Shown one piece after another: positions 42,569 to 47,237 of a DNA stretch of 64,000 nucleotides. The stretch is from Anaerolineae bacterium. GTDB taxonomy: Bacteria > Chloroflexota > Anaerolineae > UBA3071. Numbering within the stretch: position 1 is the first letter of the stretch; each line of letters begins with the position of its first letter. The DNA is taken from assembly GCA_029907105.1 (NCBI GenBank), contig JARYMM010000005.1:8563-72562 (forward strand). Direction: 5' to 3'. The notes beneath the pieces were generated by a model that had not been told where the DNA came from, searched no databases, and was given only the letters and a program-made list of their open reading frames with translations. The position numbers and the translations under genes are program-made.

Positions 42569-42659
42569 CAGTGGATGGAAATTTGCTCTGAGGGGATCGT
42601 CAGATCCCCGGTTTTCGCCAGGATCTGACGATCCTGGCGGAGCGATTTTCCATCTACTG
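42569..42659 (-). mobile_element. family-B MITE-like element, second copy (inverted orientation)
   Basis: Reverse complement of the 36250-36339 element (about 90% identical). Flanked by 5-bp direct repeat AGTTT. Its terminal CAGTAG supplies the last codon and TAG stop of queG. Confidence 0.55.
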
Positions 42660-43733
42660 AGTTTGGATTTCCACCTTTGCCCCCATCCGCTCCAGGGCCC
42701 AGGCGGCGTGCTGGCGCAGCAGCGGTTCAGGGTCGCCCAGGGCCTTGCTCAAAGCGGGCAACGCCGCCGGGTCGCCCCAGTTGCCCAGGGCCACGGCCAC
42801 ATTGCGCAGCAACCCTCGCCGCCTGGCCCGCTCGATGGGGCTGCCCCGGAAGCGGCGGCGGAACCCCTCCTCGTCCAGGGCCATCAACTCCAGCAGCGAC
42901 GGTTGCCTCAAGCCAGGGCGCGGCTGCAAGGCAGGATCGCCGGCCGGCTGGCCGAAGCGGAGGTTCCAGGGACACACCTCCTGGCAGAGGTCGCAGCCGA
43001 AGATACGCCGACCCAACGCCGGGCGCAGCTCCTCAGGGATGGCCCCTTTCAGCTCGATGGTCAGGTAGGCCAGGCAGCGGCGGGCATCCAGCAGATACGG
43101 CTCGAGGAGGGCACCGGTGGGGCAGGCGTCCAGGCAACGGGTACAGGTGCCGCAGCGCGGGGCAGTCCACGGCTCATCTGGCGGGAGCTCGATGGTCAAC
43201 AGCAGTTCTCCCAGCAGCAGCCAGGAGCCAAAGCGGGGGTGGATCAGGCAGCAGTTTTTGCCGATCCAGCCCAACCCCGCCCTCATGGCCAGTTCCCGTT
43301 CCAACAGCGGCGCGGTGTCCACGCAGGCCCGCCCCAACAGTTCCGGCGGCTGGCCCGTTTCCGCTGCCAGCCACTCGCGCAGGGCCAGCAGCCGGCGCAT
43401 CATGACCTCGTGGTAATCCTCGCCGCGGGCGTAGCGGGCGATGAGGCCATGGCCGGGCAGCAGGGGCCCTTCATCAGGCCAGAAGCTGTTGAGGCCGACG
43501 ACGAGGATGGAACGGCAGCCGGGCAGCAAGGTGCGCGGGTCGCGCCGCTCCTCGACCCGCCGCACCAGGTAACTCATCTCGCCGGCATAACCGGCCTCCA
43601 CCCAGCGGGCATAAAACTCGGCCTGCGCGCTGGGCACGGCGGCGCAGATGCCGGCCACATCAAAGCCCAGAGCGAGAGCCCGCTGCTTGAGTTGGTCTTT
43701 CGTCATCCGTCGTTCGTCCGATAGACGACGCAA
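42654..43733 (-). CDS. queG: epoxyqueuosine reductase
   Basis: 4Fe-4S ferredoxin motifs CGTCTRCLDACP and CDLCQEVCP. QueG N-terminal domain. C-terminal HEAT-like repeats. The C-terminus is altered by the MITE insertion. Alternative start 43706. Confidence 0.8.
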   Translation of the reverse strand: MRRLSDERRMTKDQLKQRALALGFDVAGICAAVPSAQAEFYARWVEAGYAGEMSYLVRRVEERRDPRTLLPGCRSILVVGLNSFWPDEGPLLPGHGLIARYARGEDYHEVMMRRLLALREWLAAETGQPPELLGRACVDTAPLLERELAMRAGLGWIGKNCCLIHPRFGSWLLLGELLLTIELPPDEPWTAPRCGTCTRCLDACPTGALLEPYLLDARRCLAYLTIELKGAIPEELRPALGRRIFGCDLCQEVCPWNLRFGQPAGDPALQPRPGLRQPSLLELMALDEEGFRRRFRGSPIERARRRGLLRNVAVALGNWGDPAALPALSKALGDPEPLLRQHAAWALERMGAKVEIQTQ

Positions 43734-45158: not shown

Positions 45159-45294
45159 ACTCTTTCCTCCCGCCATCTCAGTTGTGCCCATGCCCGCAAA
45201 GGCAACGCCCGGCGGACGAATCCACCGGGCGTTGTGGGTCTTGAAGACATGGACAAGTCCATCCGCTGCGCATGCGGAAACGCTTTACTTCAGG

Positions 45295-45733
45295 CTCCGC
45301 GGGGAGGACTCGAACCTCCAGCCAACCGGTTACGTCTACCCCTGTGTTTCCACAGGGAACGGACTATCTCATCACCCCAGAGGGGTGCGGGGCGCTCGAG
45401 GGTGGCTTATCGGTCGGGCTCCTCACCACCTAGTCTCTGCACCTTCCTGGCTACCCAAGGCCCTTTGGCCAGGCTTGGCTCAGGGTTACCACCACCCGAA
45501 GTGCTGAGGCTTCCCTGCTAGGCGTACTTTTTTAGTTCCTTGAGTTATCGAATTGACCGAGTTCTTTTTGGTTGTCAGGCTTCCTTCTCCGTCTAAGACG
45601 CCTGCCAACCAAGCAGCGTCCGCGATGTTCATGCTGCACGCCTAGTTTGATTCACCCCGTTTTTCCTCTAGCCATTGCTGACTAGGGCTGCCAACCTGAC
45701 AGCCGGTCGCTCTGCCAATTGAGCTACCGCGGA
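45295..45733 (-). tRNA. tRNA-Asn(GUU) interrupted by a group I intron between anticodon positions 35 and 36
   Basis: Exon 1 (45733-45699) UCCGCGGUAGCUCAAUUGGCAGAGCGACCGGCUGU plus exon 2 (45332-45295) UAACCGGUUGGCUGGAGGUUCGAGUCCUCCCCGCGGAG give a canonical 73-nt cloverleaf. U8, G18G19, U33, anticodon GUU, T54-psi-C and G73 are all in place. CC is genomically encoded. Confidence 0.65.
45333..45698 (-). ncRNA. group I self-splicing intron (IC3-like), 366 nt, no internal ORF
   Basis: 5' exon ends in U paired with G of internal guide GCAGCC (P1). GGUU immediately 5' of the guide pairs with 3'-exon AACC (P10). Terminal G precedes the 3' exon. Core block GAAGGUGCAGAGACUAGGUGG resembles the P7/J6-7 region of the Azoarcus tRNA-Ile intron (recalled). 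Confidence 0.6.
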
Positions 45734-45775
45734 ACGATCACTTTGCATAGCCAATTATACTCAAAATGGCGATTT

Positions 45776-45836
45776 CGTCAAATCAGAAAGTGACCGTGAT
45801 CAGGGAGGGATCGGTTTCTTCCTGATCCCTGATCAC
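45776..45836 (-). terminator. putative intrinsic terminator downstream of rpoD
   Basis: 11-bp stem GTGATCAGGGA / TCCCTGATCAC with a 19-nt loop, followed on the minus strand by CUUUCUGAUUU. Begins 40 nt after the rpoD stop. Confidence 0.3.
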
Positions 45837-45875
45837 CGATCCCTGATCTCCGGTAGATGCACGTGACTACGTCCG

Positions 45876-47132
45876 CTACGATGCAAGGTAGTCCCGCAGC
45901 TTGCGGCTGCGCAGGGGATGGCGCAGTTTGCGCAGGGCTTTGGCCTCGATCTGCCGCACCCGCTCGCGCGTGACCCCAAAGGCCTCGCCCACCTCCTCCA
46001 AAGTGTAGTAGCGGCCATCCCGAAGCCCATAACGCATCTCCAGCACATCGCGCTCCCGCTCGCTCAGCGATTCCAGGATCTCGCGCATGTGCTGCTTGAG
46101 CATCTCGCGGGAAGCAGCGTCCGCCGGCCCGGGCAGCTTCTCGTCCTCGATGAAATCGCCCAGGTAACTGTTATCCTCGCTGCCCACCGGCGCTTCCAGG
46201 GACATCGGCTCCAGGGAGATGCCAGAGATGCGTTGTACCTTGCTCTCCGCCCGCCGCCAGCGCCACTCCAGCGCCGGGTCCAGGGGCTGGTCATAGGTCA
46301 GGGCCTCCGCAATGGCCTGCCGATCCTCCGCCGACAATAGCCCCATCTCCAGAGCGATCTCCTCAGCCGTTGGCTCCCGCCCATACTCCTGGGCAAGCTC
46401 CTGCCTGATCTCCCGCACGCGGGCGATCTGTTCGTGCATGTGTACAGGCACACGGATAGTACGCGCCTGATCGGCAATGGCCCGGCTGACCGACTGGCGT
46501 ATCCAATAGGTGGCGTAGGTGCTGAACTTGAAACCGAGTGAGGGATCGAACTTCTCCACGGCTCGCAGCAGGCCAAGGTTCCCTTCCTGGATCAGATCGA
46601 GGAGAGACATCCCGCCCCGGCCGGCGTAGCGTTTGGCCTCACTGACCACCAGCCGCAGGTTAGCCTGCGTCAATTGCTGTCGGGCACGCTGCCCCGCCTG
46701 CACCTGCTCTTCGAGCATGGCACGCTCGTCTGCGGGGACCTCCCCCTGTCCCAGCCTCTCCTTAGCCGCATTCCCCTGTTGAATGAGCCGGGCCAACTCC
46801 AATTCTTCTTCAGCGCTCAGCAGGCGGTGACGACCGATCTCCCGCAGGTACATACGCACCGGGTCGGCCGCCGCGGTGAAATCGCCCGCGCTCTCCAGAA
46901 CCTCCTCCAGGAGCTGCTGCTCGTCCTCCTCGAAGGTCATATCCGTCTCGTCGGCCTCGATTCTCGACCTCAAAGCTTTCACTGCCCGCGCCTGATCGCC
47001 GTTATCCCGGCGCGCCGACGGCGACTCGGAGACGCCGGAGGACGTTGGAGCATCGTCTGTATTCTGTTCCGACCCGGGAAGAGGCAGGGGCACGGATTGT
47101 TCTCCCTGCTCTTCCTCAGACCTCAACGTCAT
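45876..47132 (-). CDS. rpoD: RNA polymerase sigma-70 (primary sigma factor)
   Basis: Regions 1.2-4.2 all present ([31 protein letters not shown], region 4 [21 protein letters not shown]). Start ATG 47132 with RBS GAGGG. Confidence 0.9.
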
Positions 47133-47237
47133 CTTTACCCTCACCGCTTCCCACAGGTCAACCAGCAGGCCGGCTTGCAGGTTCAAGCCCGCGCTTCGAT
47201 TGGCCTGAGCACAACCCTCCCCTGGCCACGAAAGCGC

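Follow-up and report, generated by a model that had tools for sequence, protein, structure and literature searches.

A tRNA-Asn(GUU) gene from a probable Chloroflexota bacterium split between nucleotides 35 and 36 by a group I intron of a known family

The stretch of DNA described here, 64,000 nt of contig JARYMM010000005.1 (hereafter the window), contains on its minus strand the two halves of a tRNA-Asn(GUU) gene. Considering all the evidence presented below, it is very probable that this is a tRNA gene with its own promoter, split between nucleotides 35 and 36 by a group I intron of a known family, that the intron holds the decayed remnant of a LAGLIDADG gene, that the host probably belongs to Chloroflexota, and that intron-plus and intron-less alleles coexist. 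To judge from its anatomy, the group I intron would most likely be functional, splicing itself out and restoring the anticodon loop of tRNA-Asn. The locus represents neither a new insertion site nor a new kind of element; it stands out by its host, probably a member of Chloroflexota, by the unusual place that the LAGLIDADG remnant occupies in the ribozyme, and by the occurrence of three allele states within one lineage.

The split gene and its intron

In the initial annotation, made from the letters of the window, halves of 35 and 38 nt were placed around a 366-nt insert, and these coordinates have proved to be exact: ARAGORN reads the joined exons (73 nt) as a tRNA-Asn(GTT) with a regular cloverleaf. 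As also described there, the gene stands upstream of glyA and in the same orientation, within the same-strand order dnaG, rpoD, tRNA-Asn, glyA, queG, and its G73 is followed by genomic CC. The next base is a T, so that CCA is incompletely encoded; intron-plus alleles have CCT after G73, whereas intron-less alleles encode CCA.

The position of the junction comes from relatives of the host. A homology search with the window's SHMT, the product of glyA, gave a graded series of uncultured relatives, whose flanking DNA was compared. The order dnaG-rpoD-tRNA-glyA-queG is the same in L124, L125 and L207 (SHMT 93% identical) and in L126 (87%), and in these four the tRNA-Asn gene is uninterrupted and its sequence is exactly exon 1 plus exon 2 of the window; the genes of L124, L126 and L207 are called tRNA-Asn by ARAGORN. 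An uninterrupted gene is also present in L210 and L211 (SHMT 86%). No alternative placement of the 366-nt insert reproduces the sequence of the uninterrupted orthologues. Because these syntenic orthologues equal exon 1 plus exon 2, the intron lies between nucleotides 35 and 36 (CUGU|UAA). More distant glyA relatives (L127-L129, 74-79% identical) have no tRNA adjoining glyA and are uninformative for the junction, and the same holds for L209, which is cut off upstream.

The promoter found upstream of the tRNA matches the consensus at 11 of 12 positions, where shuffled sequences contain a mean of 0.3 sites, and both of its hexamers are kept in L121 (an intron-plus relative described below), L124 and L126 amid diverging surrounding DNA. 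As the gene has this promoter of its own and is followed, before glyA, by a weak terminator-like hairpin, tRNA-Asn is probably a separate transcription unit.

The identity of the insert as a group I intron is far beyond chance. The search for RF00028 (Intron_gpI) that the initial annotation had suggested returned a match at 45621-45340 (minus strand) that covers model positions 1-253 of 253 and scores 52.5 bits against a gathering score of 50 (E 1.8e-10), the sole Rfam match above its gathering score in the 64 kb. The P3 and "P2" assignments of the Rfam alignment itself were not adopted, as they are displaced by the 132-nt insert discussed below. All the landmarks that had been recognised by eye are present, namely P1 (GGCUGU/GCAGCC, with a U.G pair at the splice site), P10 (GGUUG/UAACC), the terminal G at 45333 and a block of the P7-core type, GAAGGUGCAGAGACUAGGUGG. 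The central claim of that annotation, a group I intron that splits tRNA-Asn(GUU) between nucleotides 35 and 36, is thus borne out by RF00028, by the orthologues and by the structure of the family.

In an alignment, the members of this family share one plan: guide GCAGCY, P2, CGGGUG (P3), AAU (J3/4), P4, P5, P6/P6a, GCAGAGACUA (P7), an extra hairpin, CGCCCG (P3'), P8, GAUAGUCC (P7'), P9 and the terminal G. From 19 sequences, RNAalifold recovers P1, P2, P3, P4, P5, P6, P6a, P8 and P9, as well as the anticodon stem of the tRNA across the two exon flanks, with compensatory changes at 34 of its 52 pairs. P1 with the splice-site U.G occurs in 19 of the 19 aligned members, and the cells paired across the family amount to 92.8% in P4/P5, 98.2% in P6 and 99% in P6a. 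P7 is invariant, and its support is conservation, there being no covariation to count. When the pseudoknotted model is considered, 86.8% of cells are paired, compared with 74.1% in shuffles and 30-44% when the partners are slid, and 28 pairs have changed on both sides; the observed values are reached by 0 of 500 shuffles. In this pair count the P3 columns are one off for the relatives, as the window has an extra G, so that the P3 score looks poor; the RNAalifold register is valid.

Judging from the anatomy of the window and from published experiments on homologues, splicing would proceed as follows. The precursor would fold with exon GGCUGU on the guide GCAGCC, placing U35 in the U.G wobble, and a free guanosine held in P7 would attack after U35. 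The terminal G would then replace this guanosine, with GGUUG holding the UAACC of the 3' exon, and ligation of the exons would restore the loop CUGUUAA. End trimming, CCA completion and modification of the anticodon loop would come afterwards. The 132-nt insert, in turn, would be what remains of a LAGLIDADG gene that once made the intron mobile. The features of the locus are collected in Table 1.

Table 1. Features of the tRNA-Asn locus, with positions in the window
Feature	Position	Strand	Remarks
5' exon, tRNA-Asn(GUU) nt 1-35, ending ...CUGU	45699..45733	-	35 nt; equals the 5' part of the uninterrupted L124, L126 and L207 genes
3' exon, tRNA-Asn(GUU) nt 36-73 (UAACCGG...GCGGAG)	45295..45332	-	38 nt; followed by genomic CCU
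Group I intron, probably IA1-like, Asn-35/36 family	45333..45698	-	366 nt; RF00028; at least 100 homologous tRNA-Asn introns; covarying consensus structure
Internal guide: GGUUG (45692-45696; P10 with 3' exon UAACC), then GCAGCC (P1 with exon GGCUGU)	45686..45696	-	U.G at the splice site
P2 hairpin, CUAGUC-AGCAAU-GGCUAG	45668..45685	-	Compensatory changes at all six pairs across the family
P3 5' strand CGGGGUG and J3/4 AAU	45650..45659	-	Pairs with 45388-45394; compensatory changes at three pairs (RNAalifold)
132-nt insert between J3/4 and P4	45518..45649 (intron 50-181)	-	Absent from all other family members aligned
Putative remnant ORF of 48 codons, MNIADAAWLAGVLDGEGSLTTKK...	45486..45632	-	LAGLIDADG-type motif at 45579-45611; runs out of the insert into P4/P5 by frameshift
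Hypervariable patch of the insert	45547..45573	-	14-nt indel and about 13 substitutions relative to L121; reading frame altered
P4-P5-P6-P6a: CAGGG/CCCUG, GCC/GGU, GCC/GGU, CCUGGC/GCCAGG	45441..45517	-	Compensatory changes
P7 5' strand GACUA (guanosine-binding helix)	45431..45435	-	Pairs with UAGUC 45362-45366; invariant in 19 of 19
Extra hairpin from P7 to P3', GGUGG-UGAGGAGCCCGACCGAUAAG-CCACC, P7.1-type, family-conserved loop	45401..45430	-	Also in cyanobacterial, acidobacterial, Nitrospirota and Bipolaricaulota relatives
P3 3' strand CGCCCCG, then P8 hairpin CACCCC-UCU-GGGGUG	45373..45394	-	P8 100% paired; three pairs with compensatory changes
P7 3' strand UAGUC and P9 hairpin CCCUGUG-GAAA-CACAGGG	45340..45366	-	Family structure
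Sigma-70-type promoter, TTGACG, 16-nt spacer, TATAAT	45754..45781	-	About 20 nt upstream of the tRNA 5' end
Terminator-like hairpin and T-rich tail, between tRNA and glyA start	45206..45218	-	Weak consensus match; shuffles average 0.8 sites

A published intron family and its subgroup

The initial annotation had considered the 35/36 junction as not being a known bacterial tRNA-intron site. This novelty has to be rejected, as the site is found both in a published catalogue and in a published survey. Williams (2020, bioRxiv 10.1101/2020.01.27.920355) mapped 5,292 tRNA genes split by introns, whereby the known tRNA/site types increased from 4 to 21, and the site was already in that catalogue, as Asn.4Ug, according to Nakagawa et al. 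(2026, mSystems, PMC13011429). The latter authors report 28 introns at 35/36 in 4,934 complete genomes, 19 of which are in Patescibacteria and the remaining ones in Cyanobacteriota, Nitrospirota, Bacillota_A, Bipolaricaulota and Pseudomonadota. Additionally, they describe precise in vitro self-splicing for introns from Patescibacteria, which is abolished when the terminal G is changed to C. A paper on cyanobacterial tRNAs (PMC5733544), in which group I introns and tRNA-Asn are treated apart from each other, has no bearing on the site.

To this we can add a scan of one genome per species (185,579 species) for a pattern made of the terminal G and the tRNA-Asn 3' half, which has one match in the window and none in shuffles. 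Among the matches listed outside the window, at least 109 of 115 reconstruct as split tRNA-Asn(GUU) genes of the form CUGU / intron...G / UAA; the terminal G is present in all of these relatives by construction of the search pattern, and P10 was scored in the window intron. According to the record titles, the majority of the hosts of the split genes among the matches listed are Patescibacteria, the others being Omnitrophota, Cyanobacteria, Acidobacteriota, Nitrospirota, Planctomycetota, Elusimicrobiota, Clostridia, Methylomirabilota, Ignavibacteriota, Binatia, Margulisiibacteriota and further groups. Other Chloroflexota with the same insertion, which the initial annotation had proposed to look for, are represented among the matches listed by one metagenome-assembled genome (MAG) of Limnocylindria (L110), whose intron is also recognised by Rfam. 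Over positions 182-362, the window intron has 73-80% identity with tRNA-Asn introns from Cyanobacteria (L009, L038, L056), Acidobacteriota (L025, L053, L072, L108) and Nitrospirota (L042, L104), with nhmmer E values down to 1e-22. The intron is therefore a member of a published family that is abundant in public genomes.

Some further occurrences of the pattern may be mentioned here. It is present in 70 "viral" contigs of IMG/VR (L130-L199), and in 14 of these a split tRNA-Asn gene could be reconstructed; such contigs may belong to large phages, correspond to prophage borders at tRNA-Asn, or come from small-genome bacteria that were misclassified. In one IMG/VR contig of 436 kb (L142), the intron core is 74% identical to that of the window. 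When the intron was compared with 50,697 phage genomes by distant blastn, no match was obtained. In L084 (Nitrospira sp. CG24E, NEWP02000021.1), there are two tRNA-Asn 5' halves about 1.6 kb apart, the first followed by a fragment of an HNH-like open reading frame (ORF) and unrelated ORFs and the second by a normal short intron, an arrangement that looks like a rearranged or nested insertion.

As to the subgroup, every member of the family has extra structure between P7 and P3', which takes one of three forms: two small hairpins (mostly in Patescibacteria), one hairpin of 30-35 nt, or one hairpin of 16 nt. The window and its closest relatives have the 30-35-nt form, with the conserved loop UGAGGAGCC..ACCRAUAAG, and in the window 34 nt, including the hairpin GGUGG...CCACC, separate GACUA from the AG that precedes P3'. 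In the Michel-Westhof scheme, elements of the P7.1/P7.2 type between P7 and P3' are a hallmark of IA introns, whereas in the IC3 fold (Azoarcus, Anabaena) P7 leads directly into P3', with no P7.1-type hairpin. The same P7-P3' hairpin is carried by the introns of a Bipolaricaulota genome (GCA_004102645.1) and a Nitrospirota genome (GCA_951812745.1), with which the window intron, its insert excluded, shares 72.6% and 74.4% identity, respectively (blastn E 1.6e-23 and 5.4e-23). Table S5 of Nakagawa et al. (PMC13011429) assigns both of these Asn 35/36 introns to IA1, and 25 of the 28 introns that these authors report at 35/36 belong to subgroup IA. By its classified relatives, the window intron would thus be IA1-like.

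Two other identities of the element have to be weighed against the one proposed here. In its default mode, ARAGORN calls no tRNA across the whole 64-kb window, and in intron mode it displaces the cut by one base in the 5' direction, so that the output is a tRNA-Thr(GGU) gene (a Thr(GGT) call). With such a cut, however, the intron would begin with U and end with C, and it would have neither the splice-site U.G nor a terminal G. Moreover, the loop reads CUGUUAA in the uninterrupted orthologues, and Thr miscalls of split tRNA-Asn genes of this kind are documented in the literature (PMC13011429). The probability of a tRNA-Thr gene is practically nil, this reading being excluded by uninterrupted orthologues that equal exon 1 plus exon 2. 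The other identity is that of an IC3 intron of the Azoarcus tRNA-Ile type at an undescribed site, as the initial annotation had it. What would favour it is the R-element block GUGCAGAGACUA, which was likened to the cores of IC3 introns and may resemble them. This block is, however, a generic R element, invariant in the family and near the Rfam consensus, and the site has already been published. In addition, the extra hairpin between P7 and P3', the IA1 classification of the nearest published relatives and the prevalence of IA introns at 35/36 all argue against IC3, which we consider highly improbable. The description as IC3-like had consequently to be abandoned in favour of a probably IA1-like intron in tRNA-Asn.

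The insert in the ribozyme core and the sister alleles

A 10-bp stem (CUAGGCGUGC/GUACGCCUAG), which is also formed in the fold of the whole precursor, closes the insert that separates J3/4 from P4, and the insert folds independently as a domain (z -4.07; L121 variant, -4.34). Three bases inside this stem is the ATG of an ORF of 48 codons, whose motif WLAGVLDGEGS is of the LAGLIDADG type. When the window is translated in all six frames, the motif AAWLAGVLDGEGS is obtained a single time, and 0 of 200,000 shuffled versions of the intron contain it. The sole Pfam match of the ORF, to LAGLIDADG_3, lies below the cutoff (E 0.036, 14.8 bits against 22.5). When metagenomes were scanned with the peptide, free-standing ORFs of 165-350 aa with the same beginning (M..GWLAGVLDGEGS) were obtained, and one of them passes the Pfam cutoff of LAGLIDADG_1. 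With another full-length LAGLIDADG-type ORF, 14 of the 20 N-terminal residues are identical, in a match that includes the start methionine. None of these metagenome relatives lies in an intron or a tRNA, and among 5.8 billion proteins the mini-ORF has a single relative, P0001. The insert is most likely a decayed homing-endonuclease cassette that would no longer encode a nuclease. The initial annotation, which reported no homing-endonuclease ORF, was right in that there is no intact one, but it missed the LAGLIDADG-type remnant ORF of 48 codons (45632-45486).

Among the 124 reconstructed Asn-35/36 introns listed, the LAGLIDADG motif is found in the window intron alone and the insert is absent from the other 123, while HNH-type ORFs are found in 20 of them. 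The J3/4-P4 junction is not among the usual insertion points, which are in peripheral loops. In the 18 long relatives from the genome scan that were checked, the HNH ORF is in the P1 loop, upstream of the guide. As the HNH ORFs sit elsewhere and no other member listed has the motif, the LAGLIDADG remnant would represent an independent invasion.

The HNH-bearing introns deserve a short description of their own. Those of 510-590 nt, with ORFs of about 100-125 aa, are L003, L012, L018, L023, L034, L037, L040, L041, L042, L060, L065, L067, L068, L073, L075, L087, L102 and L117. Outside Patescibacteria, according to the record titles, their hosts are Nitrospira/Nitrospiraceae (L034, L042), "Deltaproteobacteria" (L018, L117), Elusimicrobiota (L041), Planctomycetales (L067) and Omnitrophica (L102). 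For complete genomes, Nakagawa et al. (PMC13011429) report IA introns at 35/36 with a homing-endonuclease gene in Patescibacteria alone, and they predict that draft genomes may perhaps differ.

The protein P0001 led to the metagenome contigs L121-L123, which have the same synteny as the window and a 380-nt version of the intron, located at about 3406-3785 in L121. Outside intron positions 126-152, there are 2 differences between the introns of the window and L121. The ORF of L121 has 42 codons, its frame diverges from that of the window after residue 22, and its stop codon is the last triplet of the insert. Because the frames differ after residue 22 and the lengths are 48 and 42 codons, the ORF is to be regarded as a remnant and not as a member of the LAGLIDADG genes. 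Independent decay within a gene that was formerly longer would be expected to produce a patch like the one in which the two alleles differ.

The flanking housekeeping genes of the window and L121 are 88-94% identical, which is similar to the level found with the intron-less L124. The flanks are mosaic: upstream of the tRNA and in rpoD, L121 is nearer to L124, whereas the intron and about 110 nt downstream of it are 97-99% identical between the window and L121. These two also have in common a segment of about 45 nt after the tRNA (window 45230-45294, minus strand), with two small hairpins (CCGCATGCGCAGCGG and ATGGACTTGTCCAT), that is missing in L124 and the other intron-less alleles. From these three lineages, we infer that the intron may have been transferred by recombination in one piece with the flank downstream of it, in the manner of homing. 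Purifying selection was considered as the cause of the 99% identity of the introns, compared with about 90% for the flanking genes, and it was set aside, as the flanks are mosaic. Since recent transfer is at least as likely, the near-identity of the introns was not used as evidence of function.

A third allele state is found in L208 (positions 2124-2192; JGI 3300003332, GBSed_10017649; SHMT 93%), where a flank of the intron-less type contains a tRNA-Asn without TAAC. The deletion comprises nucleotides 36-39, directly 3' of the insertion point (...GGCTGT|CGGTTGG...), and destroys the anticodon loop; the sequence has an Rfam match of 52.4 bits and no ARAGORN call. LAGLIDADG enzymes are known to leave 4-nt overhangs. 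Because the deletion has this size and is at the insertion site, it is possibly a scar of cleavage and repair, imprecise loss of the intron or an assembly error being the other possible origins. In any case, the coexistence of intron-plus, intron-less and 4-nt-deleted alleles, together with the mosaic flanks, suggests recent mobility. A tentative scenario that would join all of this, and that we consider possible but rather less than likely in its entirety, is that a LAGLIDADG gene independently invaded an IA1 Asn-35/36 intron at J3/4-P4, an unusual place in the core and not the P1 loop where the HNH genes reside, and carried the intron, with about 110 nt of the sequence downstream, into other uncultured Chloroflexota that are close relatives, leaving two independently decaying alleles (window and L121), several intron-less alleles and, in L208, a possible scar that would also inactivate the tRNA.

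Several points weigh against the conclusion that the window contains a working intron with an endonuclease remnant in a Chloroflexota host. The RF00028 match is just 2.5 bits above the gathering score, and the L121 variant, 14 nt longer, is below the threshold. The J3/4-P4 core junction contacts P6, so that an insert at this place could impair folding. The LAGLIDADG assignment comes from about 22 residues and a Pfam score below threshold, and searches of proteins, metagenomes and family introns found no intact version of a LAGLIDADG gene within the intron. It is also possible that a second, intact tRNA-Asn gene is present elsewhere, as 64 kb of the genome are in view, and the near-identity of the introns of the window and L121 may reflect recent transfer and not purifying selection. 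Finally, the host is an uncultured bacterium that probably belongs to Chloroflexota, on a single marker: the nearest named SHMT, 74% identical, is that of a "Chloroflexi bacterium" MAG.

Some of these points would fit other explanations. The insert might be a structured peripheral extension of the RNA, with a LAGLIDADG-like peptide by coincidence, which would agree with the low Pfam score, with the lack of an intact homologue within the intron and with the location of the motif-coding stretch inside a stable hairpin. Against coincidence, however, are the rarity of the motif in the shuffles and in the window, the N-terminal match to true LAGLIDADG ORFs from the start methionine onwards, and the start and stop of the ORF, which are the boundaries of the insert in L121. 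Additionally, decay of the interior takes the form of a frameshifting indel and shows no compensatory pattern, and 123 other members of the family listed lack the insert, so we regard a mere RNA extension as unlikely. Alternatively, the intron could be dead and the gene a pseudogene, if the insert at J3/4-P4 had crippled folding and tRNA-Asn came from another copy. The position of the insert at a core junction, the marginal Rfam score (52.5 against 50, and below threshold in L121) and the room for another copy beyond the 64-kb window are compatible with this, and the damaged allele of the same gene in L208 indicates that the lineage may tolerate its loss. Nevertheless, all the core helices are intact in the window, where J3/4 and P4 would come to lie side by side through the 10-bp stem of the insert, the exons match a functional-looking orthologue exactly and the promoter hexamers are conserved. 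The core, the exons and the promoter are retained in two diverged intron-plus lineages, and no other tRNA was found in the 64-kb window. A dead locus is, on balance, quite improbable, and a splicing-competent intron with a decayed LAGLIDADG cassette remains the reading that we prefer.

Comparison with known systems and genomic setting

The window intron has the tRNA, the junction CUGU|UAA and the guide GCAGCY of the published Asn-35/36 introns (Asn.4Ug; PMC13011429), and with the introns of GCA_004102645.1 and GCA_951812745.1 it shares the order of the helices, including the P7-P3' hairpin, at 73-74% identity once the insert is removed. It also shares their annotation problem, as the tRNA is missed or miscalled as Thr. 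By contrast, its probable host, Chloroflexota, is not among the six phyla that the survey reports for 35/36 (PMC13011429), and members with a homing-endonuclease gene have HNH ORFs in the P1 loop, whereas the window has a LAGLIDADG-type remnant after J3/4.

When compared with IC3 introns, such as those of Azoarcus tRNA-Ile(CAU), Agrobacterium tRNA-Arg(CCU) and cyanobacterial and plastid tRNA-Leu(UAA), the window intron is similarly compact, with a generic P/Q/R/S core, a U.G at the 5' splice site and a terminal G. It differs from them in subgroup and in its insertion at 35/36, as the IC3 intron of tRNA-Ile is at 36/37. For tRNA-Arg and tRNA-Leu, the positions given are 36/37 and 34/35, respectively (PMC13011429). 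The same source mentions LAGLIDADG (PF03161) in cyanobacterial tRNA-Arg(CCU) introns.

Presence and absence of the intron among close relatives, and mosaic flanks consistent with co-conversion, are likewise features of the cycle of gain and decay of homing endonucleases. In the model of this cycle, reportedly put forward by Goddard and Burt in 1999, the endonuclease gene decays once the population has become saturated. What is different here is that there is a remnant of 42-48 codons alone, that it stands at J3/4-P4, and that no intact donor was found.

The locus is of practical relevance for annotation. ARAGORN finds no tRNA here by default and a tRNA-Thr in intron mode, and the Rfam match barely passes in the window and fails in L121. 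Such a genome would be scored as having no tRNA-Asn and, therefore, estimates of genome completeness would be affected, a point that Nakagawa et al. (PMC13011429) make as well. Moreover, the locus extends a family reported to be enriched in Patescibacteria to a host that probably belongs to Chloroflexota, and it adds a second endonuclease family, LAGLIDADG, to the Asn-35/36 introns. With the intron-plus, intron-less and scarred alleles, there is a compact natural series in bacteria in which the gain of an intron, the decay of its endonuclease and its loss can be studied.

Regarding the neighbourhood, queG (epoxyqueuosine reductase; window 42654-43733, minus strand) is the second gene downstream of tRNA-Asn(GUU), and this tRNA belongs to the four that are modified with queuosine. 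The order tRNA-Asn, glyA, queG is kept in L124, L126, L207 and L208, and the intron is one base away from G34, the queuosine-modified position, although the proximity of queG may be a coincidence. Just upstream of the tRNA promoter (window 45795-45850, minus strand), there are short repeats, GATCAGGGATCGGTGATCAGGGATCAGG ... GATCCCTCCCTGATCAC, that are absent from the relatives; L121 and L124 have another repetitive stretch at that spot (CAAACTTCAAAC... and GAAGTTTGAGGTTTAG..., respectively). Finally, the rpoD product has 551 aa in the intron-less L124, L125 and L207 (1007-2662), compared with about 418 aa in the window (45876-47186, minus strand) and 419 aa in L121; within the lineage, this sigma factor varies strongly in the length of its N-terminal region.

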